DNA of 64,000 nucleotides, from NCBI GenBank assembly GCA_043821445.1, contig JBDRCT010000013.1, positions 82,149-146,148 on the forward strand. The letters are read 5' to 3'. The DNA is from Candidatus Omnitrophota bacterium. Lineage in GTDB: Bacteria > Omnitrophota > Omnitrophia > Omnitrophales > Aquincolibacteriaceae. The notes below the pieces were generated by a model. It searched no databases, was not told where the DNA came from, and was given only the letters and a program-made list of their open reading frames with translations. The first letter of the stretch is position 1; the number at the start of each line of letters is the position of its first letter. Both the position numbers and the translations under genes were made by a program. Shown here in pieces: positions 29,497 through 47,108 of the stretch.

Positions 29497-30543
29497 TCAG
29501 TTGCCATAGTATTTCCGTTTGAACCAAAGCGCCACACTCACGAGGCCGATCAGTACCGGCACTTCCACGAGTGGGCCGATCACCGCTGCGAACGCGACCC
29601 CGGAGTGGATGCCGAACACCGCGACCGCTACCGCGATAGCAAGCTCGAAATTGTTGCTTGCGGCGGTAAAGGACAGCGTGGCAGACTGGCCGTAAGAAGC
29701 GCCTATTTTTTTACTCATAAAAAAAGAGATCAAGAACATGACGACGAAATAAACGAGGAGCGGAATTGCGATCCGCACGACATCCATCGGGATCTTCACG
29801 ATATATTCCCCTTTCATGGAGAACATTACGGCGATCGTAAATAAAAGCGCGGCAAGCGTGATGGGGCTGATCGCCGGAATAAATCTTGTCTCATACCAGG
29901 TTTTGTCTTTGATCTTGAGAAGGACGAATCGCGTCAGCATCCCTGCAAGAAATGGGATGCCGAGATAGATAAAAACGCTTTTGGCGATTTGACCGATTGT
30001 GATGTCCACCACCGCACCGTGCAAACCGAACCAGCGCGGCAGGACCGTGATGAAGACCCATGCGTAAAGGGAGAAAAAAAGCACCTGGAAGATCGAGTTG
30101 AACGCCACGAGCCCCGCACAGTATTCCGTATCCCCTTCGGCCAAGTCGTTCCAGACAATGACCATCGCAATGCAGCGAGCGAGGCCGATCATGATGAGCC
30201 CGATCATGTATTCCGGATAGCCGCGCAGAAACGTGATCGCCAGCACGAACATCAAAATGGGACCGATCACCCAGTTCTGGACGAGGGACAGCAGCAGGAC
30301 TTTCGTGTTCTTGAACACATCACCGAGCTCTTCATATTTCACTTTGGCGAGAGGAGGATACATCATCAAAATGAGCCCTATGGCGATCGGAATATTGGTC
30401 GTGCCCACCTGGAACTTGTTCCAGAATCCCACGACCGGCGGATAAAGATACCCCGCCGCGACACCGATCCCCATGCTGAGAAAGATCCAAAGTGTCAAAA
30501 ACCGGTCTAAAAATGACAGCTGCTTCTTATGACATTCGCTCAT
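29497..30543 (-). CDS. acr3: Arsenite efflux transporter, ACR3 family
   Basis: [13 protein letters not shown]...; 10-TM Acr3; start MSECHKK (30543). Confidence 0.85.
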
Positions 30544-31238
30544 AAGTTCCCTCCTTGGAGCCAATAAGCCCAGACGTAATAAATACCCGCGCCGATGAAG
30601 ATCACGCCTGTCATCTTGCGCGTATAAAGTTCGATCTTGGTCAACCTGTGGAACCAATGGCTCAAAGATGTCACGCCAAGAGCTATCGCCACGGCAAACG
30701 CCAACACAGGCAGGCCGGTGCCAATTCCATAAATGAACGGCAGGAGTGCGCCCACCGGATGATTAAGCGCCAAAGGAATGAGACTTCCGAAAAAAAGCGC
30801 CGCAGACACGGGACAGAACGCGAGAGCGAAAATAAAACCGAGCAGAAAAGCTCCAGGCGCACCGGACTCGGCGAGTTTATTGTGATGCTTTTGGGAAAGA
30901 GAAAGGCCGGGCAAGCGGACAGTCATGATCTCAAGAAGCAGCAATCCCGTTACGATCAAAAGCGGTCCTAGCACCTTCCCCATGTATCTCTGGAGAAATA
31001 GAGCGGTCTGCGGGACGCTCACAAGAGAATGTATAATGATCCATCCCAGGACGGCGTAGGAGACCACTCTTCCGAACGTATACGCCAAACCCGAAATGAA
31101 AACGGCAGCCGGATGCGCGATCTTTTTTGACAGAAAAGAGACCGCCGCGATGTTCGAGGCCAAAGGACAGGGACTGATCGAGGTTAGAATCCCCAGCCAA
31201 AGCGCAGAAAACCAGCCGACCCAGAATTGATCCATCAC
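30540..31238 (-). CDS. Cytochrome c biogenesis CcdA / DsbD transmembrane-domain protein
   Basis: [12 protein letters not shown] ... [12 protein letters not shown] (paired TM Cys). Confidence 0.75.
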
Positions 31239-31669
31239 GCCTCCTTCAGGAAGGCGGCGACTTCATCCCGCACATAATTCTCGTACCGGTCTTTATTGCG
31301 AACATATTCCCAGATCTTGTCGAGGTTCTTGGAACGGATTTCTTTGCCATCTTTTGTGAGAGAGAGAATAACGGATTTGGTGTAGAGCTGATAATCCTTC
31401 GCAAAATGCTCGTTGCCCTTACTCTCGACATTCACGACCCTAAACGCGAGCTTCCCGGAAGCCAAAGCTTCCTTAAAATTACTCTCAATGGCCTCTTGGG
31501 CATACTGCTCCAATTTTTTGCAAGTCGGACAACGAAAAGTTCCGTGAAAATAATAAGCTGTGACAACACCGCCTGCGGACACTTCCTCGGCCATGACAGG
31601 AGAAGTCCCGAAGCATAAATGACTTGCCAGTGCAACAGCTATCAGCAAAAGGAGAGTGTGTTTTTTCAT
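31235..31669 (-). CDS. Secreted thioredoxin-like protein
   Basis: Signal peptide, CPTC motif. Confidence 0.6.
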   Translation of the reverse strand: MKKHTLLLLIAVALASHLCFGTSPVMAEEVSAGGVVTAYYFHGTFRCPTCKKLEQYAQEAIESNFKEALASGKLAFRVVNVESKGNEHFAKDYQLYTKSVILSLTKDGKEIRSKNLDKIWEYVRNKDRYENYVRDEVAAFLKEA

Positions 31670-31678
31670 GGGTCCCTT

Positions 31679-31912
31679 TTATTTCGCAAGGATCTTTTTG
31701 ATCTCGTTTGTGTTTAACAGCTTTCCCGTCGAAACCACCGTGCCGTCGACCACCACGGCAGGAGTCATCATTACGCCATAGCCGGTAATCGCATCGATGT
31801 CTGTCACCTTAACGATCTCAGCCTGAATGTTAAGCTCCTTAACCGCCGCTTCCGCGTTCGCGGTAAGTTGTTCGCATTTCGGACAACCTGTTCCAAGAAT
31901 TTCTATTTTCAC
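31679..31912 (-). CDS. Small thioredoxin-fold redox-active disulfide protein
   Basis: MKIEILGTGCPKCEQL...; 77 aa, common in ars operons. Confidence 0.7.
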   Translation of the reverse strand: MKIEILGTGCPKCEQLTANAEAAVKELNIQAEIVKVTDIDAITGYGVMMTPAVVVDGTVVSTGKLLNTNEIKKILAK

Positions 31913-32712
31913 AGCCCACCTCCGGTGTTTTTTTCTTTTACAGCTGAAACTTTGATGCTAGCTACTGTGCCTTCAGCATTTCTGAGATCTTCGAACATCG
32001 TATCCACGGGATAACTTGCTTCGCTGATCACCTTAACATTCTGGAATCCCGCCACTTCGATGCACCTCAAATATTGATCCTTTTTGATCGCCCCGGCAAG
32101 GCACCCTACATAAGCATTGATCGATTCTTTCAGAGCCTTCGGCAGTTCCCGAGTCAGCACCAGATCGGAAACCATCAGCCTACCCCCGGGTTTTAACACC
32201 CTAAAAGCCTCTTTAAAGACTTTCTCTTTTTCCGGAGAGAGGTTAATGACGCAATTGGAGATAATGAGATCCACGGACTGATCTTCAACGGGAAGCACTT
32301 CGATCTCGCCCAAACGGAACTCCACGTTCTCATACTCCCCTTTCCCGGCATTTTCTTTGGCCTTCGCAATCATTTCGGGCGTCATATCAACACCGATCAC
32401 GCGGCCGGCTTTACCGACCTTCTTCGCCGCAAGAAAAACATCGAATCCGGCCCCACAACCAAGATCCAGCACCACATCGCCCTCTTTAATAGCCGCAAAA
32501 GCTACGGGATTGCCGCACCCGAATCCCAAATTCGCGCCTTTGGGAACCGCATTTATGTCTGTATCGCTATACCCGATCTTTTCGCTTATCGCCTTTGCCT
32601 GACTTACGTTTCCGCAGCACGAACCGGACGAACAACACCCGATATGCTGTTCAAGAGCCTTGGCATAACCCTTGCGGACTATTTTTTTTATTTTGTCAGT
32701 GCTTTTTCCCAT
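31909..32712 (-). CDS. arsM: Arsenite S-adenosylmethionine methyltransferase ArsM
   Basis: N-terminal CC/CC Cys pairs (IGCCSSGSCCG), SAM motif VLDLGCGAGFD, C-terminal Cys. Confidence 0.8.
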   Translation of the reverse strand: MGKSTDKIKKIVRKGYAKALEQHIGCCSSGSCCGNVSQAKAISEKIGYSDTDINAVPKGANLGFGCGNPVAFAAIKEGDVVLDLGCGAGFDVFLAAKKVGKAGRVIGVDMTPEMIAKAKENAGKGEYENVEFRLGEIEVLPVEDQSVDLIISNCVINLSPEKEKVFKEAFRVLKPGGRLMVSDLVLTRELPKALKESINAYVGCLAGAIKKDQYLRCIEVAGFQNVKVISEASYPVDTMFEDLRNAEGTVASIKVSAVKEKNTGGGL

Positions 32713-32721
32713 AGTTTTCTC

Positions 32722-33894
32722 CTAAATAACAATAGCGCCGAAAATCATGCCGCTAATCGTTGCCATCACTACGACGAGACAGACATAAACGGCGGTCTTT
32801 TTGGTTCCGATCACACTGCGAATCACGAGCATGCTGGGAAGGCTCAACGCAGGCCCCGCAAGAAGAAGCGCCAATGCGGGACCTTTCCCCATTCCGGAAC
32901 CGATGAGACCTTGGAGAATAGGCACTTCGGTCAGCGTGGCGAAATACATGAACGCCGCGACGATGGATGAAAAGAAATTGGCTCTCAAGGAGTTTCCGCC
33001 CACCAGGGCCGCTACATATTTCGAGGGAATGACACCTTCGTGCCCCACCCGCCCAAGCAAGAAACCGGAGATCAGGACACCTCCCAAAAGAAGCGGTAGA
33101 ATTTGAAGCGCGAAAGTCCAGGAGGCAGAGGTCCATTCCTTCAGTTCTTCTTTTTCGAACCACTTAATGAGCATGATCGCAAGCACGGCCAGGGAAATCC
33201 CGGAGATCCACCACCTATATTGGTAGATCAGGGCCCACGTTCCATGATCTCCTTCAAGGGGCTTGCCCCAATTCGCAAAAACAAGAAACGCGATCATCGA
33301 AAAAAAATAAAGGACCGTTTTGCCTAAGGACCGTGTTTCTTTGACCTCTCCTACATTAAAATCACCGCTTACCTGACGCGCTTGTTCTTCTTTGAGAAAG
33401 ATAAAATGCATCAAGAGCCCGATCACGACGCTAAAGATCACAGCCCCCACAGCTCTTGCCAATCCGAGCTGCCAGCCGAGAATACGGGCTGTCAGGATGA
33501 TCGCAAGAACGTTGATGGCAGGACCCGAATAAAGAAAGGCTATCGCCGGGCCGAGGCCCGATCCCCTTTTATAGATCCCCGAAAAAAGCGGCAGAACGGT
33601 GCAAGAACAGACGGCCAAGATCGTTCCCGAAACCGAGGCAACGCTGTAAGAAAGAAATTTATTGGCTTTGGCTCCGAAGCATTTCATGACGGATGCTTGG
33701 CTGACGAACACAGAAATGGCACCGGCAATAAAAAACGCCGGAACAAGGCAAAGGATCACGTGCTCACGAGCATACCATTTGACAAGAGCGAGAGCTTCAA
33801 AGATAGCGTTCGTGAAACGAAGATTTTCGACCGGAAGATAAAAACACGCTAAAAATCCTGCTAAGACATAAAGAACTTTTTTCCATTCATTCAT
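32722..33894 (-). CDS. arsP: DUF318-type permease, ArsP-like (organoarsenical efflux)
   Basis: Two-repeat permease; AVCSCTVLP resembles the ArsP TPFCSC motif; ars context. Confidence 0.6.
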   Translation of the reverse strand: MNEWKKVLYVLAGFLACFYLPVENLRFTNAIFEALALVKWYAREHVILCLVPAFFIAGAISVFVSQASVMKCFGAKANKFLSYSVASVSGTILAVCSCTVLPLFSGIYKRGSGLGPAIAFLYSGPAINVLAIILTARILGWQLGLARAVGAVIFSVVIGLLMHFIFLKEEQARQVSGDFNVGEVKETRSLGKTVLYFFSMIAFLVFANWGKPLEGDHGTWALIYQYRWWISGISLAVLAIMLIKWFEKEELKEWTSASWTFALQILPLLLGGVLISGFLLGRVGHEGVIPSKYVAALVGGNSLRANFFSSIVAAFMYFATLTEVPILQGLIGSGMGKGPALALLLAGPALSLPSMLVIRSVIGTKKTAVYVCLVVVMATISGMIFGAIVI

Positions 33895-34196
33895 GATTTA
33901 CTCCTTCGAACGGCCTGGCAGCAGCCCCCTTCGATTTTAATGCCATGGTGGTGGACAAGGGCGTTCGCGATTTTTTTTCGAGCTGCGGTCAGAATGCGGG
34001 AAACTGTGGAGCGATGCACTTTCATTTTCCGGGCGGCGGCGTCCTGCTCAAGACGCTTACCATCGCAAAGCCACAGGGCCTCAAGTTCATCCAAAGTGAT
34101 CTTCGTTACAATAATATCCTTGCATGGAACATGGACCGGGCGGAAACACCGGTCCCCCGGCTTACAGCCAACGTATCTTGTTTTCTTAGGACGCAT
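33891..34196 (-). CDS. DUF134 (UPF0251) predicted DNA-binding protein, paralog 1; first gene of the ars/efflux operon
   Basis: MRPKKTRYVGCKPGDRCFRPVHVPC...LDELEALWLCDGKRLEQDAAARKMKVHRSTVSRILTAARKKIANAL; Cys-rich N-term + sigma-r4-like HTH. Confidence 0.8.
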   Translation of the reverse strand: MRPKKTRYVGCKPGDRCFRPVHVPCKDIIVTKITLDELEALWLCDGKRLEQDAAARKMKVHRSTVSRILTAARKKIANALVHHHGIKIEGGCCQAVRRSKS

Positions 34197-34208
34197 AGAA
34201 CACCTTAG

Positions 34209-34228
34209 TTATGCACATATGTGCATAA
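34209..34228. promoter_or_regulatory. Perfect 20-nt palindrome TTATGCACATATGTGCATAA 13 nt upstream of the DUF134-1 start (candidate operator)
   Basis: 15/20 positions identical to the palindrome upstream of DUF134-2 (38366-38385); consensus TTATnnnCATATGnnnATAA. Confidence 0.5.
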
Positions 34229-34273: not shown

Positions 34274-35188
34274 TCAGGTTAGGAATGCGACGCTGAAAAT
34301 GCCGGATGTGGTCTGGGTCTTGTTGCTCCCAAGAACATCCTGCTGGACGCCCAGTTCAAACCGCAAATGATCGCCCAGTGGCATAATGACGCCCAGCACC
34401 AAGCTCACCAGATTGGCGGTCTGTCCTTGCCCTGCGAAATCGTGCAGATAGATCAATTCGGCTTCCGGCTGCAACCACCAGAACACCTGATAGCCTGCCG
34501 CGAAATTCGCGTGTGCCGTCCCATAATAATGATTCGTCCGCTCCCAATGCGCGAGCGGAGCATTGTAACCCAGATTCACGGTCCCGTTCCACCGGCCGAT
34601 GTCTTTGGTGAACGCGAAGGAGTTATCCAGGCTGGTGTAACCCTGGCTGGCGCCGAGGTGATCGAGATTGCTGCGCCGTCCGGTGGGAATGAAGATCGTG
34701 GGCATATACGCGATCTCGAGTTTCTTCTCTGCGGAATCATAGAAACGCCACTTGCCAGCCACGCCGAGATCGCCCCAGCCGAACCCGTGCGAAGGCCCCT
34801 CGGTCTCATCTTCCAGTCTCTCCCCCGTATCCGGGTCCGACAGATCCCTGAACTCATCATAGTTGTTCTCTTTGTCCAAAGTATGCTGGAACCAATTGAT
34901 GATCCCGACATCGATATCTTTATAGACCCCGACCGTTACCTGGCTTTCCCATACCTGGGCCAGATAAGTTCCCCGGTTCTCTCTCGCGCCGTTCGACTTC
35001 CAGGCGAATTTGCCTCCCTGGAGCACATAAGAGCCCCACACCTCGACTTGCCCGGGATCATTTGGCGTGGCATCCGTGGTCACGACTTTGGAATGTTCCT
35101 CGATCGCCAGATTGTCCGCAACGTGCGTCGCGTAAAGAGGGCTTGAAACGGTAAGCAGCAAGCATAGAAAAAGAAGGTTTCGCGTCAT
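34274..35188 (-). CDS. Outer-membrane beta-barrel-like protein, paralog 1 (last gene of the fur-feoAB operon)
   Basis: Signal peptide MTRNLLFLCLLLTVSSPLYA, conserved TGRRSNLDHLG, C-terminal ...SVAFLT; 48% identical paralog at 41570-42511. Confidence 0.55.
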   Translation of the reverse strand: MTRNLLFLCLLLTVSSPLYATHVADNLAIEEHSKVVTTDATPNDPGQVEVWGSYVLQGGKFAWKSNGARENRGTYLAQVWESQVTVGVYKDIDVGIINWFQHTLDKENNYDEFRDLSDPDTGERLEDETEGPSHGFGWGDLGVAGKWRFYDSAEKKLEIAYMPTIFIPTGRRSNLDHLGASQGYTSLDNSFAFTKDIGRWNGTVNLGYNAPLAHWERTNHYYGTAHANFAAGYQVFWWLQPEAELIYLHDFAGQGQTANLVSLVLGVIMPLGDHLRFELGVQQDVLGSNKTQTTSGIFSVAFLT

Positions 35189-35358
35189 GTTTTTTCCTCC
35201 GGTTTTGAGGTGCTGTCTTTTTTTTCTAATTTTTGCCTGCCCGCGGGCAGGCAATCGGGGCCGCAGCGCCCTCCGCCCTTTTTGCCAAAAAAACAACGTA
35301 GCGCAAGAAGAGCCGCCAATGCCACAACGCTTAATGCAATGGTCTCATTAGTTTCCAT
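35185..35358 (-). CDS. FeoB-associated Cys-rich small membrane protein (57 aa; not in ORF track)
   Basis: METNETIALSVVALAALLALRCFFGKKGGGRCGPDCLPAGRQ...; one TM + Cys cluster; AGAGGA SD; TGA overlaps barrel ATG. Confidence 0.45.
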   Translation of the reverse strand: METNETIALSVVALAALLALRCFFGKKGGGRCGPDCLPAGRQKLEKKDSTSKPEEKT

Positions 35359-38265: not shown

Positions 38266-38282
38266 GGAGAGAGGATCCTCTT

Positions 38283-38338
38283 ATTAAGATTAAGTCTGAA
38301 TAAGCGGGAGTGTAGCGGAAGGACCGCGGTATGTCAAC
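38283..38338 (-). promoter_or_regulatory. Candidate fur-feoAB promoter (-35 TTGACA / 17 / -10 TACACT) with tandem ATTAAG hexamers downstream (Fur-box-like)
   Basis: attaagattaag at 38283-38294 between -10 and the GTG start. Confidence 0.3.
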
Positions 38339-38340
38339 GC

Positions 38341-38385
38341 TTGACAAAGATACACCTCTTGACTATTATTGGCATATGCTAATAA
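38341..38385 (+). promoter_or_regulatory. Promoter of the DUF134-2 operon: -35 TTGACA / 17 / -10 TATTAT overlapped by the palindrome TTATTGGCATATGCTAATAA
   Basis: Divergent from fur; palindrome 38366-38385 matches the DUF134-1 operator. Confidence 0.5.
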
Positions 38386-38400
38386 CCTCTGAAGAAGCCC

Positions 38401-38703
38401 ATGCCAAGACCTTTTAAATGTAGACGCGTTTGCGGAACGCCCGGAACAGACTATTTTAAGCCCAGAGGTATTCCTCTCTCCAATCTCCAGGAAATCGGCC
38501 TAACGATTGATGAGTTTGAAGCGATCCGCCTTGCGGACTTGGAAGGCCTTTACCAGGAGGACGCCGCCAAGAAAATGGACATCTCCCGTCAGACATTCGG
38601 AAACATCATTGCGTCCGCTCATAAGAAGATCGCAGATGCCATTGTGAATGGTAAAGCCCTTAAAATCTCGGAAAACAAAGATATTAAGGAAACACAGACA
38701 TGA
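38401..38703 (+). CDS. DUF134 (UPF0251) predicted DNA-binding protein, paralog 2
   Basis: MPRPFKCRRVCGTPGTDYFKPRGIP...IDEFEAIRLADLEGLYQEDAAKKMDISRQTFGNIIASAHKKIADAIV. Confidence 0.8.
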   Translation: MPRPFKCRRVCGTPGTDYFKPRGIPLSNLQEIGLTIDEFEAIRLADLEGLYQEDAAKKMDISRQTFGNIIASAHKKIADAIVNGKALKISENKDIKETQT

Positions 38704-38873
38704 TAAAGATCGAAGGAAAACTGTGCAACGGCTGTGGAATCTGCAAAGAAATTTGCCCAGTAGACGGGATCAAGATTATAGACGGTAAGGCTGTAGCTAA
38801 TGAACAATGCATTGATTGCGGGACCTGCATCGCATCCTGTGCGTCCGGAGCGATCTCTCCGGCTGAAAATTGA
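38700..38873 (+). CDS. 4Fe-4S ferredoxin (57 aa; not in ORF track)
   Basis: MIKIEGKLCNGCGICKEICPVDGIKII...CIDCGTCIASCASGAI; two CxxCxxCxxxCP motifs; ATG overlaps DUF134-2 TGA. Confidence 0.7.
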   Translation: MIKIEGKLCNGCGICKEICPVDGIKIIDGKAVANEQCIDCGTCIASCASGAISPAEN

Positions 38874-38886
38874 TCCGGTATTGATT

Positions 38887-39480
38887 ATGGACTCAGTGCT
38901 GCTGTCACTCAGGAAAAGGACAAGGCAGTTCAAGCGATACGGCTACGACCTCCCTGCCTCCCGCCGGTTCATCTGGAAACTATCAGGTATTTGTCACGGG
39001 GAAGTCCTCGAAATCGGAACCGGCAAGGGGCATTTGACCGCCCTGCTGGCCCAGAAAGGTCTCAAGATCATCTCGGTCGATCTTGATGGAGAGGTTCTCA
39101 AGACCGCAAAAACTCACCTGTCCGCGCTAAAACTCAGTAAACGCGTTTCGCTCCGGAAGATGAATGCGGAAAGACTCCGGTTCAAGTCAAGGAGTTTTGA
39201 CAACGTGATCTCCATAGATTTTTTTCATCACGCCCGAAACCCGCTCCGTTGCCTCCGGGAAATGATGCGAGTAACTCGAAAGACCTTAACAATCGCGGAT
39301 TTGAACCAAAACGGTATGCGGATCATGGACCTTGTTCATAAAAGTGAAGGAAAGAGACACGAAACCCCCAAGATCCCATTTGGAGACCTAAAAAAGCATT
39401 TTCTCGCACATCATTTTAACGTCAAAAGTTATCGTCACCCATGCCACCAAATTTTTGTGGCGCAAAGGAGGAGTTCATGA
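38887..39480 (+). CDS. Class I SAM-dependent methyltransferase
   Basis: VLEIGTGKGHLTALLA motif I; start MDSVLL (track ORF begins earlier, overlapping the ferredoxin). Confidence 0.7.
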   Translation: MDSVLLSLRKRTRQFKRYGYDLPASRRFIWKLSGICHGEVLEIGTGKGHLTALLAQKGLKIISVDLDGEVLKTAKTHLSALKLSKRVSLRKMNAERLRFKSRSFDNVISIDFFHHARNPLRCLREMMRVTRKTLTIADLNQNGMRIMDLVHKSEGKRHETPKIPFGDLKKHFLAHHFNVKSYRHPCHQIFVAQRRSS

Positions 39481-39842
39481 AGATCTGCATCCCCACAACA
39501 ACCAAAGACGGAAAGTCCGCCCAAGTTTACGAACATTTCGGAAGTGCGCCTTTTTTTACTATTTGTGATTCAGATAAAAACACTATCGAGATCATCGACA
39601 ACGCAAACCAGCACCACTCCCACGGCATGTGCCAGCCCATGAGCGCGCTCGTCGGAAAAGAAATCGATGCGGTCGTTACCGGAGGCATGGGAGCCAGAGC
39701 TGTCCAGAAACTGAACGAAGGCAGGATCAAAGTCTACCGCGCCATCCCCGGAACTGTCGAAAATATCTTGAAGCAATTTTCAAAAGGTGGTCTTCAGGAA
39801 CTGACTATTGAGAATGCCTGCGCTCAACACGGGTGCCATTAA
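39477..39842 (+). CDS. NifB/NifX-type dinitrogenase FeMo-cofactor-binding domain protein
   Basis: MKICIPTTTKDGKSAQVYEHFGSAPFFTICD...AVVTGGMGARA; ATG overlaps methyltransferase TGA. Confidence 0.7.
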   Translation: MKICIPTTTKDGKSAQVYEHFGSAPFFTICDSDKNTIEIIDNANQHHSHGMCQPMSALVGKEIDAVVTGGMGARAVQKLNEGRIKVYRAIPGTVENILKQFSKGGLQELTIENACAQHGCH

Positions 39843-39875
39843 ACATTCCGGTGTGAGGATCTGTAGACTAAACAT

Positions 39876-40343
39876 ATGCGACAAACCCAAGAAAAGCTTA
39901 AATCATTACAAAGCCGTTTTCATGCGGCCTGCGTAGTTTGCGGAAGAGAAAATCCTCAAGGCATGAAATTGCCTTTTCACACCTGCAAGGACGGCTCGGT
40001 CAAAGCATGGTTCTTCTGCGATCAGCTTTTGCAGGGATATCCCGGATTGATGCATGGTGGCGTGATCGCGGCGATCCTCGACGGAGCGATGATGAATTGC
40101 CTTTTTGCCCAGGGTAGAATAGCCGTGACAGGGGTTTTGACGGTTTGTTTTGTGTCCCCCCTTGCCGTAAAACAGACTGCGACCGTCCGGGCACGGGTGA
40201 AAAAATCTATTTCCTCGTGTCATATCTTGGAATCAGAACTCTTGCAAGGCAGGCGCACCGTTGCGAAAGCGACGGCCAAATTCATGGAATGCACGGAACA
40301 TTTTCTCAGACAACATAAAATAGCGGAGGAGGAAAGAAAATGA
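39876..40343 (+). CDS. PaaI-family hotdog thioesterase
   Basis: LMHGGVIAAILDGAMMNC. Confidence 0.65.
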   Translation: MRQTQEKLKSLQSRFHAACVVCGRENPQGMKLPFHTCKDGSVKAWFFCDQLLQGYPGLMHGGVIAAILDGAMMNCLFAQGRIAVTGVLTVCFVSPLAVKQTATVRARVKKSISSCHILESELLQGRRTVAKATAKFMECTEHFLRQHKIAEEERK

Positions 40344-40513
40344 ACTTGTGGATCCGGCTGCTGGCCTTTGTGTGTGAAATCTGCCCTTTATGTATCACGG
40401 CGAGGTGTTTCCCAAATTCCAAATTCGCCGCGAGCATGAAGCGACTAGAAAAGTTTTGCCCTTTTTGCAGCGCCCACGAAAAGTTAAAACAAGATAACGA
40501 AAAATCTCAATAA
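40340..40513 (+). CDS. Cys-rich 57-aa peptide (CxxCPxC...CPFC), not in ORF track
   Basis: MNLWIRLLAFVCEICPLCITARCFPNSKFAASMKRLEKFCPFCSAHEKLKQDNEKSQ; GGAGGAGGAAAG SD; ATG overlaps thioesterase TGA. Confidence 0.4.
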   Translation: MNLWIRLLAFVCEICPLCITARCFPNSKFAASMKRLEKFCPFCSAHEKLKQDNEKSQ

Positions 40514-40516
40514 ATC

Positions 40517-40861
40517 ATGAAAGAGACGGCTAAAGCTTATTTTTTAGGAAAAAAAGGATCCCGCAGGCTGAATTGCGCTCAATCGGTGGCTGAGACATTC
40601 CGGGAGAAATACCCTCTGGACGAGAAAAAAACGACTATTCTCTCCGCATGCGGTGGGGGCATGGCCCCGGAGGGATACTGCGGCGCGTTTTACGCAGCAA
40701 AATGCCTTCTGGACTATCATTCCCCCCATCGCACCCAAGAAAGCATGGCGCAGCTTCATTCTGCCGCAGGCTCCCTCAAATGCCGGGAGATCAAAGCTTT
40801 AAAAAAACTGCCGTGCGTCGGCTGCGTTGAAAAAGCCGCGGAAGTGGTCGAAGAAAAATGA
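40517..40861 (+). CDS. C_GCAxxG_C_C family redox protein
   Basis: LNCAQSVAETF ... CGGGMAPEGYCGAFYAAKC. Confidence 0.75.
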   Translation: MKETAKAYFLGKKGSRRLNCAQSVAETFREKYPLDEKKTTILSACGGGMAPEGYCGAFYAAKCLLDYHSPHRTQESMAQLHSAAGSLKCREIKALKKLPCVGCVEKAAEVVEEK

Positions 40862-41565
40862 AAATTCGGCTTATTGCCGAAGGCTCAACAAGACGCGAAC
40901 GAAAGATCCTCCGGTGGGGCCTGGCCTTTCTTGTCGGGAACGTTCTCTTTGACACCTTCGGCCGGAAAGATATTTTTAAAAGAAACATCAGGCGCTTCGG
41001 GATTGATCTGTCCCGCGTCAAACATGTCGTGATCTCACATGAAGACTGGGACCACATCGCCGGGCTTGAGAATTTTCTTAAAACTCATCCTAAAACACCT
41101 GTTTATGTCTGCAGGAAATCCGGTAACGCGTTAAGAAAAATAATCCGCAGCAACGGCGGCTCACTTATCGAAGTCGACAAACCCCGAAAGATAAGCCGCA
41201 ATATTTTCTCTCTCGGTCAAATGCGGGCCGATACAGGCCGAGGCATTCTTTATGAGCAGGCTCTCGTTGTGAAGTCGCGACATGGTTTTTCCGTGATCAC
41301 GGGCTGCGCCCACCCAGGGATCTTCCGGATCATCAGACAGGCCATCAAGATATTCGGGAATAAAATTTACACCATTTGCGGCGGATTCCACATGAAGGAC
41401 AATACGCAGGAAGAGAATTAAAAAATCATCGAAAAACTTCAAGCGCTCGGCATTAAAAAGGTCATCCCCCTCCACTGCACTGGCGCAACTGCCCGCCGAT
41501 TATTCCAAAAAACCTACGAAAGGAATTTTGTGACCTTACGCGAAGGCAATACGCTTACCCTCTAA
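40858..41565 (+). pseudogene. MBL-fold metallo-hydrolase interrupted by an in-frame TAA (41419-41421)
   Basis: ISHEDWDHIAGL ... GGFHMKDNTQEEN*KIIEKLQALGIKKVIPLHCTGATA: the C-terminal PxHCTG motif continues in frame after the stop. Confidence 0.6.
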
Positions 41566-41569
41566 ACGG

Positions 41570-42511
41570 TCAGGTCGCGAAGGCGACTCGAAAGATACCT
41601 GTGGTAAGCTGGTCTTGATTGCTGCCCAGGACGTCCTGCTGAACGCCGAGGTCGAAGCGGAGATGATCGCCCGCCGGAATGATCGCGCCCGCTACCACAC
41701 TCACAAGCTTTCCGCCTTTGCCGGGGTTTTCAAAACTATGGTTATAAATAACCTCCATCTGAGGGTGAAGCCAGGAAAGCAACTGGTAACCCGCCGCCGC
41801 ATTAAAATTCCAGGTGCCGCGGTAGTTCCCCGTTTTTTTCGAATTCGCAAGCGGTACGTTGTAACCCGTGTTCAAAGTCCAGCAGAACCGTTTGTATTCC
41901 TGGGTGTAGATCAGATTGTTCGCAAAACTTACATAACCCGCCCCCGGCCCCAGATGATCAAGATTGCTGCGTCGGCCCGTCGGCAAATAGACCGTCGGGC
42001 TATAAGCCAGTTCGAATTTTTTCTCCTTATTCTCGTAAAACCGCCAACGACCCATAACCCCAAGGTCCCCGCGGCCGCCTCCGTGTGTCGGCCCGCCGAT
42101 CGTATCTTCCATTGCCTCGCCGGTCAACGGATCGATCTCGTCGGCGACTTCATTATCATTATTGTTTTTGTCGAAAAGATGATAAAAGCTCTGGAAGATC
42201 GCCATATCAATGTCCTTATAGAGTCCGATATAGGTCTCGACATCCCAAGCGTGAGTGAGATAGGTTCCCCGGTGATAACGCTCTGCATCCGTTTGCCAAG
42301 CGAATTTCCCGCCACGAAGCGAATAGGCAAGATCGACCTCGACATGGCCGGGATCCGTAGGTGTAGCATCTAAGGTCAGCAGCTTGGAATGGCATGCTTC
42401 TGTTTCTTCCTCATTTTGAATGGCAGGATCAACACGTATTTGTTCTGACGCTAGGGCAACGGATGTGAAAACTACGCTAAAAAAAAAGATGGGGAAAAAT
42501 CGCGCCTTCAT
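41570..42511 (-). CDS. Outer-membrane beta-barrel-like protein, paralog 2 (downstream of nikMN-nikR)
   Basis: Signal peptide MKARFFPIFFFSVVFTSVALA, TGRRSNLDHLG, ...RVAFAT. Confidence 0.55.
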   Translation of the reverse strand: MKARFFPIFFFSVVFTSVALASEQIRVDPAIQNEEETEACHSKLLTLDATPTDPGHVEVDLAYSLRGGKFAWQTDAERYHRGTYLTHAWDVETYIGLYKDIDMAIFQSFYHLFDKNNNDNEVADEIDPLTGEAMEDTIGGPTHGGGRGDLGVMGRWRFYENKEKKFELAYSPTVYLPTGRRSNLDHLGPGAGYVSFANNLIYTQEYKRFCWTLNTGYNVPLANSKKTGNYRGTWNFNAAAGYQLLSWLHPQMEVIYNHSFENPGKGGKLVSVVAGAIIPAGDHLRFDLGVQQDVLGSNQDQLTTGIFRVAFAT

Positions 42512-42516
42512 AGTCG

Positions 42517-42912
42517 TTATTCCGTCGAACAAGCAATCAAGTCTCCGCCCTTGATCCCTTTCAATCCGATCAGCTTTTTTGACAGACCATTCAGCTCTTT
42601 CGCATGGCCCTTCACGAGAATGGTTTCGAGACAATTGTGGTGGTCCAGATGCACATGCTGGCCCGAAAGAATGAGGTGATGATGGCCATGCTGGATGGTC
42701 ATGAGATTGTTAAGAAGATCGCGCCGGTGATGGTCATAGATCAGCACGATGCAGCCGGCCACCAGCCGGTTGTCCTTCCATTTGTCCTGGAGTAAATTTT
42801 TCCGTACGAGAAACCGTATCGCCTGCGAACGGTTGGGAAGTTTGTGTTTGGACACGAGGCGGTCCAATTCTTTCAAAAGAGAATCTTCTAAAGAAACTCC
42901 GAATCGTTTCAT
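42517..42912 (-). CDS. nikR: Nickel-responsive regulator NikR
   Basis: RHH N-term (VSLEDSLLKELDRLV) + C-terminal His cluster HGHHHLILSGQHVHLDHHNC. Confidence 0.8.
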   Translation of the reverse strand: MKRFGVSLEDSLLKELDRLVSKHKLPNRSQAIRFLVRKNLLQDKWKDNRLVAGCIVLIYDHHRRDLLNNLMTIQHGHHHLILSGQHVHLDHHNCLETILVKGHAKELNGLSKKLIGLKGIKGGDLIACSTE

Positions 42913-45767: not shown

Positions 45768-47108
45768 CTATTGAATGGCATGTTTGTGGTTGCCCGCTAA
45801 AAAATCCACTACGAAAAACGCGGCATTGTCCGTTTTTTCGCCGCCCGCATAGACCGTGTGCGAATATTGCAATTTCACATCTACATACTCGCTTTGCCAG
45901 AAGATCAAATAAGGCGAAACCGATGTGGTGCCATGCTGACCGGAGACATCGAGCGGATTAACATAATCAAAACGGACTCCAGGGCTTAACCTCGGGGAGA
46001 GCTTGTACTCCACAAGCGAATAAAAACCCCATGGCTTTGCATTGGTGGAATTAACAAGATCCGGTCTGTTCTGAAAATAAATCTCGTTCTGCCATGTCAT
46101 CTGTTTCCCCTCAGGCAGGAACCAATTAAAGGTGGCATCTCCCCCATACACCTTTACACCATACCAATCGGTTCCTTCCGGTCGTGTCCATTCCGTGGTC
46201 GTTCCGCTACCGTCATCGATCGTTAACGGCGGATTGACGGTCCCGAACATTGTCGTCCAGCCTAATTCCAGATTTGTATCGGACGATGGCTCAAAGAAGG
46301 TTTTGAGGTGCGTATTGAAAATAGGACGTCTCGAAACCCCGGCAAAACTCGCGCCGTTATTTCCCCGCAAGATTTCTCCGGTAACCTCTAAAGGCAGATC
46401 CCAGGGATTCGGAATGTTGTTCCTAAGACGCAGCCCGGATGAAGACAATCCTTCGTCCCCGAAAAAGTTCTGGATAACTAGCGGATAGTCCGCCGCGGGT
46501 AGTGCGTGGGCATGCATGAGATTCGCTTTTCCGATGTTGGCGCGGAATTTGCCGATCTGTCCCGTGAACCCAAGTGGCAATCCCCATCGGGTGTAATATG
46601 CCTCTTCGAGATGAATGACATGCTCCTCGATATGATCGTTAAGACTGATCGTTGCATCAAACCGGGAGTAGGGATCCACCACTTGCCCCAGAGTAATTTC
46701 AAACTCTTTCAGCGCGGTCGCGTTATTGCCCTCCGTGTCCGACTTGTTCTGGGTCAATTTTGTTTGCACCGTCCCCGCAATCCCGATATCCGGGTTCCAT
46801 CCTGCATTGGCCTTGGGATTTGCCAGCGTAGGGGTTTGCGGTATCGCTGCGGCTTGGAGAGGGAGCAAAGTCTGTTTTTTCTCAAACACCTCGATCCGAT
46901 AATTTTGCCGCTCGATAATTTCGTTTTGGGCCCGGACTGTCGATTTCAGGACTTCCATATTGCTTTCCATGGTGGCAACCATCCGTTTGATGTCCGCCAT
47001 TTCCTGCACAAGGTTTGGCCTGCCATTGGGTTCAGCCAATGCAGTTCCGATAGGGCCGAGGTAAAAAAGAGACAATAAAAGAGAAAATATCCATAGATGA
47101 AGTCGCAT
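45768..47108 (-). CDS. Putative outer-membrane porin with N-terminal coiled coil, upstream of znuA/B
   Basis: Signal peptide, coiled coil (MESNMEVLKSTVRAQNEIIERQN), beta-rich body. Confidence 0.5.
   Translation of the reverse strand: MRLHLWIFSLLLSLFYLGPIGTALAEPNGRPNLVQEMADIKRMVATMESNMEVLKSTVRAQNEIIERQNYRIEVFEKKQTLLPLQAAAIPQTPTLANPKANAGWNPDIGIAGTVQTKLTQNKSDTEGNNATALKEFEITLGQVVDPYSRFDATISLNDHIEEHVIHLEEAYYTRWGLPLGFTGQIGKFRANIGKANLMHAHALPAADYPLVIQNFFGDEGLSSSGLRLRNNIPNPWDLPLEVTGEILRGNNGASFAGVSRRPIFNTHLKTFFEPSSDTNLELGWTTMFGTVNPPLTIDDGSGTTTEWTRPEGTDWYGVKVYGGDATFNWFLPEGKQMTWQNEIYFQNRPDLVNSTNAKPWGFYSLVEYKLSPRLSPGVRFDYVNPLDVSGQHGTTSVSPYLIFWQSEYVDVKLQYSHTVYAGGEKTDNAAFFVVDFLAGNHKHAIQ

Follow-up and report, generated by a model that had tools for sequence, protein, structure and literature searches.

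The closest described relative of the system considered here is the orp cluster of Desulfovibrio, in which Orp3 and Orp4 have two [4Fe-4S] motifs, two proteins (Orp8 and Orp5) are of the Nitro_FeMo-Co type and MrpORP is an iron-sulfur (Fe-S) carrier (PMC6345978). FeMo-co precursors, Mo-Cu-S clusters, Fe-S clusters and thioferrate have been described as ligands of Nitro_FeMo-Co family members (PMC6345978, PMC5524996). We analyzed a stretch of 64,000 nucleotides from a Candidatus Omnitrophota bacterium (contig JBDRCT010000013.1, positions 82,149 to 146,148; hereafter the window), in which eight open reading frames (ORFs) were listed on the + strand between 38341 and 41565. These genes, g1 to g8, encode a DUF134 protein, a ferredoxin, an S-adenosylmethionine (SAM) methyltransferase, a NifX-like carrier, a thioesterase, a five-cysteine miniprotein, a C_GCAxxG_C_C protein and a metallo-β-lactamase-fold (MBL) protein. 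We consider it probable that they form an operon repressed by DUF134 and devoted to handling a metal-sulfur cluster or cofactor, as a compact Omnitrophota variant of an Orp-like cluster. Among the functions offered in the original prediction, Fe-S or cofactor trafficking received the strongest support. Its statement that the gene combination corresponded to no characterized pathway was half right, since a partly characterized system exists in Desulfovibrio, the Orp-type cluster, of which the operon is a reduced variant (PMC6345978).

Orp clusters are anaerobe-specific and combine single-domain Nitro_FeMo-Co proteins (Orp8, Orp5) with proteins carrying [4Fe-4S] ferredoxin motifs, features that the window operon recalls. 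Its g4 product is a single-domain Nitro_FeMo-Co protein whose relatives by sequence in the PDB were 1rdu, 1t3v/1o13, MTH1175, PH0822 and the ORP of D. gigas (2wfb, E=1.6e-4), and the sister loci L089 and L091 (L numbers designate the related loci collected here) carry MinD/ParA-ferredoxin ATPases corresponding to Orp3/Orp4. Entries 1rdu and 1t3v/1o13 are, we assume, TM1290 and TM1816 of Thermotoga maritima, and the orp cluster of D. vulgaris presumably also contains a DUF134 gene (DVU2107). The differences were considerable as well. The two MinD/ParA-2x[4Fe-4S] ATPases of Orp clusters were not found in the window, where the 57-aa ferredoxin g2 was the sole tblastn match to the MinD-ferredoxin proteins of L065 and L089. 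As compared to the Mrp/NBP35 plus Di-Nase architecture of MrpORP, g4 matched only the Di-Nase part (38 bits vs. a cut-off of 450), and no P-loop partner for it was present within the operon. Whereas the Orp promoter is of the sigma-54 type with OrpR and IHF, that of the window operon is of the sigma-70 type with a DUF134 palindrome, no dedicated sigma-54 scan having been made. The window operon adds to the Orp plan a conserved SAM methyltransferase and a tail of thioesterase, five-Cys miniprotein, C_GCAxxG_C_C and MBL genes, and g4 is Cys/His-rich, whereas ORP holds its Mo-Cu-S cluster non-covalently (PMC6345978).

Two further systems share the same domain. NifX, NafY and the C-terminal domain of NifB belong with g4 to PF02579 and are small carriers of complex metal-sulfur clusters; no nif genes were seen among the annotated genes of the window, most genes in its first 16 kb and after 56.6 kb being unscanned. 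IssA, the thioferrate storage protein of P. furiosus, has the IPR003731/Nitro_FeMo-Co domain in common with g4, and the contexts of both suggest handling of inorganic iron and sulfur; however, g4 ends in ACAQHGCH and lacks the ~70-residue cationic Gly/Arg/aromatic tail of IssA (PMC5524996). Gly/Arg/aromatic-rich segments, with GRGxG repeats and W/Y residues, were observed in DUF5320 proteins and in a 75-aa protein of full-length clusters (L065 8338-8847 and 9719-9946; L089 644-886). These segments resemble the IssA tail, and the proteins might supply its function in trans; the window operon has no counterpart of either. No functional literature was found on DUF5320, DUF2099 or COG1342/1433/1149. 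In g4 orthologs from 22 loci, C4, HFGSAP, HHxHGxCxP, GGMGxRAV and a C-terminal AC-x2-H were invariant, the last followed by a nearly invariant C and then the final H, which amounts to a Cys/His ligand set. The g4 protein is predicted to bind a metal-sulfur species.

Conservation of the gene set was studied by a neighborhood analysis anchored on the methyltransferase, in which ORFs were labeled with hidden Markov models built iteratively from the eight window proteins. A search of 5.8 billion proteins gave 64 methyltransferase relatives, every one with an organism name belonging to Omnitrophota, and a scan of 185,579 species genomes gave 80 loci. DUF134 was immediately upstream in 21 of the 24 non-redundant loci with a methyltransferase at least 41% identical, and a NifX-like gene lay immediately downstream in every such locus with enough flank; ferredoxin, C_GCAxxG_C_C, MBL and DsrE genes were variable additions to this core. 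The ferredoxin, for instance, was present in L007, L090, L092, and L093 and absent from L008-L010, and g7 followed either the NifX or the miniprotein gene in L007-L010 and L089-L095. Since the closest genome relatives (L007-L011) contained neither the thioesterase, otherwise found in L089 and L091-L095, nor the 57-aa gene g6, a second search was anchored on the 57-aa protein, and a metagenome scan with it provided 16 more loci. The complete set of eight genes, identically ordered, occurred in L092 and L093, with 77-95% amino-acid identity; the thioesterase alone was missing from L090, and the ferredoxin and methyltransferase from L094. The head gene of L089 and L091 was 84-85% identical to g1 and their 4HBT-miniprotein-GCA-MBL tail was 70-86% identical to g5-g8, whereas the middle consisted of DUF5320-NifX-NifX-ferredoxin-methyltransferase followed by two MinD/ParA ATPases with 2x4Fe-4S. 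As head and tail are shared and the middle differs, the window operon represents, in gene content, a longer type of cluster with a shortened middle. The neighborhood analysis proposed with the original prediction thus found the genes to be co-conserved, with identical order in two loci and sub-modules in dozens.

About 48 loci with a methyltransferase at 30-38% identity shared the layout NifX-NifX-(small Gly/Arg-Cys protein)-methyltransferase-MinD/ferredoxin ATPase, the last in two to three copies, often continued by DUF2099, ARMT1-like, MBL, DnaJ and second methyltransferase genes (Pfam on L065). In composition this layout agrees with the Desulfovibrio orp cluster (PMC6345978). Their hosts were Omnitrophota, Planctomycetia, Clostridia, WOR-1/Saganbacteria, Dehalococcoidia, Methanosarcinales, and KSB1. 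The head gene of the wider clusters encoded either DUF134 (L030, L057, L070, L089, L091) or a Fur-family protein. Of the 97 non-redundant loci (1.23 Mb), 41 contained a Fur homolog, and in around 34 loci Fur was the same-strand head gene, preceding the first NifX gene by 240-730 nt; given one to three Fur paralogs per genome, this enrichment was judged, by a rough estimate, to be far above chance. Another arrangement was observed in L087/L096 (1-8650), with a CoA-disulfide-reductase-like protein with rhodanese, CoA-binding, methyltransferase-DnaJ-4HBT, DoxX/DSBA, radical SAM, a split ArsP_1 permease, ARMT1-like and five-Cys miniprotein genes and, farther downstream, MinD-ferredoxin ATPase, GCA-MBL and Fur. 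It hints at coenzyme A (CoA) or persulfide chemistry in the wider system.

The architecture of the transcription unit agreed with the original prediction. A single promoter and a single transcription unit were borne out, both hexamers being conserved in orthologs, the Pfam scan upheld all seven domain assignments, and ATGA overlaps were present at four of the seven junctions (g1/g2, g3/g4, g5/g6, and g7/g8), the gaps at the remaining three being 13, 33, and 3 nt. The promoter TTGACA-17-TATTAT (38341-38369) matched 11 of 12 consensus positions and ranked first when 5 kb of the region were scanned, which gave 11 promoter-like sites. An Rfam scan around the operon detected neither riboswitches nor other RNA elements. 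The -35 hexamer of the fur promoter (38337-38332, - strand) stands back-to-back with that of g1, 3 nt apart (TGTCAA-cgc-TTGACA, 38332-38346), and therefore RNA polymerase binding at one promoter may interfere with the other.

The main new result was a palindrome that had escaped the original prediction, as had an in-frame stop codon in g8. Both g1 and its paralog in the window, DUF134a, scored well above the DUF134 cut-off (76.5 and 61.7 bits vs. 27). The g1 protein combines a sigma-70 region-4-like helix-turn-helix (weak Sigma70_r4_2/HTH matches) with an N-terminal motif, MPRPFKCRRVCG, and its place as head gene is conserved across loci. When the upstream regions of g1 orthologs (160 nt, 12 loci) were aligned, only three elements proved invariant, the -35, the -10 and the palindrome TTATTGGCATATGCTAATAA, the latter kept in 12 of 12 promoters within flanking DNA that could not be aligned. 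It begins inside the -10 hexamer and covers the expected transcription start, and is unique in the window, where 0.01 matches were expected by chance. The generalized motif TTAT-N3-YATATR-N3-ATAA gave 34 sites in 1.29 Mb (window plus loci), all of them directly upstream of a DUF134 gene, against a back-of-envelope chance expectation of well under one site. In the form TTAT-N12-ATAA, the palindrome occurred in 34 of 41 distinct DUF134 upstream regions, from Omnitrophota, WOR-1, Dehalococcoidia, and Margulisiibacteriota, and started 27-38 nt before the ATG (mostly 30-38 nt) in all but one (the Dehalococcoidia site, at -50). The promoter of DUF134a has the same architecture, with a TTGACA -35 at 34252-34247, a 16-nt spacer and a TATTAT -10. 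Operator subtype tracked the recognition helix: methyltransferase-linked DUF134 proteins with helix SRQTFGN (…SRQTFGNII…) went with TTATTRGCATATGCYAATAA, and ArsP/ACR3-linked proteins with helix HRSTVSR (…HRSTVSRIL…) went with TTATGnnCATATGnnCATAA.

Because the palindrome over the -10 is invariant and the generalized motif always directly precedes a DUF134 gene, DUF134 most likely binds this operator as an autoregulatory repressor. Cys7 was the only well conserved cysteine of the methyltransferase-linked proteins, whereas the ars-linked type carried extra cysteines, including a C-terminal CC pair. No functional study of DUF134/UPF0251 (PF02001) was found in the searchable literature, nor any relative in a PDB sequence search. 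The palindrome was also considered as an RNA hairpin, a reading rejected from the promoter geometry: the expected transcription start is inside the palindrome, so that only its right half would be transcribed. A 299-aa protein encoded on two contigs (P0015) is an apparent DUF134-methyltransferase fusion, which may be real or a read-through at the ATGA junction.

The second core protein, g3, is 100% identical to an Omnitrophota protein at NCBI, and its start at 38887 was favored by 197-aa orthologs over the NCBI-called start at 38800; exact-sequence look-ups of the NCBI-called 226-aa methyltransferase and of g7 returned no record. An alignment of 22 sequences of the g3 family showed invariant YGYD, LE[IV]GTGKGH (an intact SAM motif), D65, H114-H115, P119, E125, R128, D138, H151, G155, and H158, and no invariant cysteine. 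With the AlphaFold2 model (pLDDT 94), the nearest solved folds were the sugar O-methyltransferases AtmM and RebM, together with uncharacterized YcgJ/BH2331-type proteins; the fold search returned only generic class I small-molecule methyltransferases, with no substrate assignment. RebM and AtmM gave the best sequence matches too, and H114-H115 and D138 of g3 align with the LHH...IADF of these enzymes (PDB 3bus, 6uv6), residues that we take to be catalytic in RebM. The scores of g3 against two ArsM fusion models of NCBIfam were 40 and 32 bits, far from the cut-offs of 510 and 575. In view of the aligned His-His-Asp residues, the low ArsM scores and the lack of an invariant cysteine, g3 looks like a general-base, small-molecule-type methyltransferase and not like a metalloid methyltransferase. 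It differs from RebM/AtmM in its identity of only 17-20%, its own N-terminal YGYD helix pair and C-terminal VH..EG..H segment, and its partners, which are metal-cluster proteins instead of sugar/indolocarbazole pathways.

A link of the g3 family with Fe-S assembly was provided by gene fusions. In P0062, an N-terminal IscU/NifU_N domain with three scaffold cysteines is fused to a g3-family methyltransferase, with which g3 aligns over residues 11-191, and a dedicated search returned such fusions in about 100 clusters at 90% identity (P0184-P0285; 310-330 aa, 44-74% identical to P0062). One fusion, in a KSB1 genome (L086 5417-6391), fills the methyltransferase slot of a NifX-methyltransferase-MinD/ferredoxin cluster, and that of another lineage (L107 8001-8936) lies after a ZnuA-ABC transporter operon. 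Judged from sequence, these Rosetta-stone fusions tie the g3 family to Fe-S scaffolds. Anamorsin/Dre2, of eukaryotic cytosolic Fe-S assembly, is a precedent for joining a methyltransferase fold to an Fe-S-binding module. Anamorsin_N was matched weakly by two methyltransferases of these loci, the product of the window's ArsM-like gene and a 265-aa member of the g3 family in L089, and PF20922 was also listed for many of the IscU-methyltransferase fusions. The anamorsin domain has, we believe, lost SAM binding, whereas the ExGxGxG motif of g3 is intact and its acidic residue for ribose binding is preserved. The fold search with g3 also returned 1vlm, the T. maritima methyltransferase TM1293, and the PDB search with g4 returned 1rdu. 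The latter is presumably TM1290, a locus number near TM1293; therefore the cultivable T. maritima may carry a related methyltransferase/NifX-like neighborhood.

The last gene of the operon, g8, is interrupted by an in-frame TAA. Intact 235-aa orthologs were found in L009, L089, and L092, where the residue corresponding to the stop is Lys in the first and Leu in the other two, so that g8 is a pseudogene or an assembly/population variant, and is probably inactivated in the window genome. Its metal motif reads SHEDWDH instead of HxHxDH, the second His being replaced by Asp, whereas the MBL of L011 has a canonical SHNHWDH; the relatives of g8 in the PDB were 7dck, TM1679, and 2p4z, and a literature search on 7DCK returned unrelated papers only. 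An independent TAG, replacing the Trp of SHEDWDH, was observed in the MBL gene of L093 (8708-8710). Stops in two lineages suggest that the gene is decaying or that population variants were sampled. Recoding of the TAA was rejected, as orthologs have ordinary Lys or Leu codons and the second lineage stops at a different site with a different codon; selenocysteine is excluded since the codon is not TGA.

Taken together, these data are consistent with a single sigma-70-type operon in which DUF134 would repress its own promoter, binding as a dimer to the 20-bp palindrome over the -10 and the transcription start until a signal relieves repression. The constant core comprises the DUF134 regulator, the RebM-like SAM methyltransferase and the Cys/His-rich carrier of the NifX/ORP family, with the 2x[4Fe-4S] ferredoxin as likely electron supply, and the exchangeable tail (thioesterase, five-Cys miniprotein, C_GCAxxG_C_C, and MBL) would add thiol, metal and small-molecule chemistry. 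Several points weigh against this proposal. The whole analysis is computational; we infer the binding of DUF134 to the palindrome from association and covariation alone, and the single conserved cysteine (C7) of the methyltransferase-linked DUF134 proteins leaves the presumed sensing mechanism unclear. No role in Fe-S handling is known for a general-base small-molecule methyltransferase. Full Orp-like clusters are defined by MinD-ferredoxin ATPases, an Mrp-type carrier and a DUF5320 protein, none of which is present in the window, and the MBL stops in two lineages imply that the tail is in part dispensable. Related clusters encode thioesterase, MBL, ARMT1-like and DUF2099 proteins, which point to organic-substrate chemistry beyond that of a carrier. 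Finally, the physiological role of the Desulfovibrio ORP complex itself is not settled (PMC6345978).

Organic-substrate chemistry is the basis of the alternative that survives best, although we regard it as improbable: the operon would make an organic ligand or small-molecule cofactor, with methyltransferase, thioesterase and MBL acting on a CoA- or phosphate-activated intermediate, the ARMT1-like, DUF2099 and CoA-binding proteins taking part in related clusters, and the product being loaded with metal on the NifX-like carrier. The His-His-Asp set of g3 is typical of small-molecule O-/N-methyltransferases, the relatives of the hotdog thioesterase (THEM4 and PaaI in the PDB) and of the MBL protein are enzymes, and L065 and L087 also encode DUF2099, ARMT1-like phosphatase, CoA-binding and CoA-disulfide-reductase-like/rhodanese proteins. 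Many loci with the core, however, do not have the tail enzymes, stop codons break the MBL gene in two lineages, no recognizable backbone-building enzyme is present in the window, and no candidate product is known.

Less likely still is metalloid detoxification, in which g3 would methylate As, Se or Te, while binding or reduction of the metalloid would fall to the Cys-rich proteins and its sensing to DUF134. The operon encodes many thiol-rich proteins, g3 matches the ArsM fusion models weakly, the paralogous DUF134a heads an ars-type operon 4 kb away, and L092 and L093 have their two DUF134 genes side by side in divergent orientation. The g3 family nevertheless has no invariant cysteine, whereas ArsM chemistry requires conserved cysteines, a requirement that we take from CmArsM; its model scores are far under the cut-offs, and an ArsM-like gene is already present elsewhere in the genome. 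ArsP was present in 6 of the 97 related loci, as compared to 41 for Fur, and the partners of the methyltransferase family are IscU, NifX-like proteins and MinD-ferredoxin ATPases. With these partners and Fur in place of ars genes, and with the His-His-Asp set, the metalloid methylation or thiolation suggested in the original prediction was not supported. The operon does share the logic of ArsR-controlled ars operons, in which a small autoregulated repressor is encoded at the head and a palindromic operator lies over the promoter, but its regulator is DUF134 and not ArsR/SmtB, and g3 lacks the cysteines and model scores of ArsM.

The ars-type operon itself (29497-34228, - strand) encodes a Cys-rich ArsM-like protein of 267 aa and a thioredoxin-like protein of 77 aa with CPKC; its ACR3 is an SBF-family transporter taken as such, and OEP and AcrB-type pump genes come after the ars-type genes. 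No ArsR was visible in this operon, and in L009 and L010 the DUF134a ortholog directly adjoins ACR3. On account of its extra cysteines, including the C-terminal CC pair, DUF134a may be a non-ArsR, arsenic-responsive repressor.

A co-transcribed assortment without shared function is very improbable: the ferredoxin, thioesterase, miniprotein and MBL genes do come and go among close relatives, but the same families stand together in around 100 loci of several phyla, the exact eight-gene order was found twice more and the ATGA overlaps join four of seven junctions, so that the neighborhood analysis already largely refutes it. Most improbable of all is a pathway for a ribosomally synthesized and post-translationally modified peptide (RiPP), with the 57-aa Cys-rich g6 as precursor modified by methyltransferase, thioesterase and MBL; a small Cys-rich ORF does lie beside families of modifying enzymes, and a radical SAM gene is nearby in L087, but g6 is uniformly conserved over its full length with five fixed Cys and CPxC knuckles in 115 clusters, is confidently predicted as four helices, unlike the leader and variable core of RiPP precursors, has ARMT1-like, MinD-ferredoxin and C_GCAxxG_C_C genes as constant partners, and no RiPP maturase, protease or exporter is encoded within the operon.

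The miniprotein family deserves a description of its own. Homologs of g6 were found at 72-80% identity, and the family comprises at least 115 clusters (50% identity; E<=1e-3; 1.84 billion representatives) with the consensus R.LA..C..CP.CI..R..P.S.FAR.....E..CPFC.AY and conserved C12, C15, C18, C40, and C43. Foldseek found no PDB fold match for the AlphaFold2 model (pLDDT 82), and longer family members contained no informative fused domains. The upstream neighbor was a 4HBT or ARMT1-like gene and the downstream neighbor a C_GCAxxG_C_C or MinD-ferredoxin ATPase gene, family neighbors always being components of Orp-like clusters. For g7, a PDB sequence search returned no relative.

Table 1. Positions in the window of the operon features and of the paralogous DUF134 gene and box.
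Feature	Position	Strand	Remarks
-35 hexamer TTGACA	38341..38346	+	invariant in 12/12 orthologous upstream regions
-10 hexamer TATTAT	38364..38369	+	invariant in 12/12 orthologs
DUF134 box, 20-bp palindrome TTATTGGCATATGCTAATAA	38366..38385		9/10 arm positions complementary; putative g1 operator
g1, DUF134, 100 aa	38401..38703	+	PF02001, 76.5 bits; putative autoregulatory repressor
g2, 57-aa 2x[4Fe-4S] ferredoxin	38700..38873	+	Fer4 family matches; eight Cys; accessory gene
g3, class I SAM methyltransferase, 197 aa	38887..39480	+	core gene; invariant YGYD, LE[IV]GTGKGH, HH, D
g4, NifX/ORP-family (Nitro_FeMo-Co), 121 aa	39477..39842	+	PF02579, 79 bits; Cys/His-rich subfamily; core gene
g5, hotdog 4HBT/PaaI-like thioesterase, 155 aa, N-terminal CxxC	39876..40343	+	PF03061; tail module
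g6, 57-aa five-cysteine miniprotein (CxxCPxC...CPFC)	40340..40513	+	no Pfam model; tail module
g7, C_GCAxxG_C_C protein, 114 aa	40517..40861	+	PF09719, 51 bits (cut-off 27)
g8, MBL-fold protein, 235 codons	40858..41565	+	PF00753, 35 bits; interrupted by in-frame stop
In-frame TAA inside g8	41419..41421	+	nonsense mutation, or assembly/population variant
DUF134a, 101 aa, head of ars-type operon	33891..34196	-	order ArsP, ArsM-like, Trx-like, 144-aa CPTC protein, DsbD_2, ACR3
Paralogous DUF134 box, perfect palindrome TTATGCACATATGTGCATAA	34209..34228		overlaps -10 (34230-34225, - strand) of first DUF134 operon

The surroundings of the operon are rich in metal genes. Upstream and divergently transcribed are fur and feoA (Pfam matches) and a 774-aa ORF whose reading as feoB rests on position, size and tblastn relatives; an outer-membrane protein (OMP) gene and nikR adjoin the operon on the other side. 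The ars-type operon headed by the first DUF134 gene is farther upstream, and nikR-cbiM and znuA/ABC-3 are downstream, so the placement among metal loci described in the original prediction is right and the operon sits in a metal-homeostasis island. Divergence from fur, also described there, holds for the window but not for the two closest eight-gene relatives, L092 and L093, where the divergent neighbor is a second DUF134 gene (DUF134a). The fur-feoAB-OMP block is on the other side of the operon in L009 and L010 and absent from the sequenced neighborhood of L092 and L093. Its variable side (L008 vs. L009/L010) indicates local rearrangement within a conserved metal island. Two paralogous Phenol_MetA_deg outer-membrane proteins (34274-35296 and 41570-42634, - strand) flank the block formed by fur-feoAB and the operon.

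ZnuA/ABC-3, FeoAB and ferritin were recurrent neighbors across loci, and the ZnuA/ABC-3/445-aa block was a recurrent convergent neighbor of the operon. The 445-aa protein (45768-47108, - strand) has no Pfam match and is linked to ZnuA and ABC-3 in the window, in L001 (441 aa), in L008 and in L091-L093; it is probably an uncharacterized component of this metal uptake system. Between the -10 and the start codon of fur there is an inverted repeat, CTTATT-N13-AATAAG (38280-38304), kept in L008. This repeat lies outside the g1 promoter and is a candidate box for autoregulation by Fur.

A broader proposition, which we put forward tentatively and hold to be rather unlikely in its entirety, is that DUF134 would be an unrecognized family of palindrome-binding, ligand-responsive repressors, with separate paralogs for arsenic and for Fe-S/cofactor operons, and that SAM-dependent methylation would be a step of anaerobic metal-sulfur handling. 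Methylation is linked to metal-sulfur chemistry here because IscU-methyltransferase fusions recur; the methyl acceptor could be cluster-bound sulfide or persulfide, a residue of the carrier, or a small ligand of a cofactor. To our knowledge, no such methylation has been assigned to any Fe-S assembly system outside NifB. DUF134/UPF0251 is widespread in anaerobic bacteria and archaea, and the covarying operator would give it a concrete and cheaply testable function. The DUF134a operon suggests that arsenic resistance genes may be controlled by a type of regulator other than ArsR. Few anaerobe-specific gene sets that lack a mechanism are as conserved as the Orp-type clusters. The five-Cys miniprotein would join this system as a new family, and the association of a SAM methyltransferase with NifX-like carriers and IscU fusions suggests an unrecognized step in anaerobic Fe-S/metal-cofactor metabolism.

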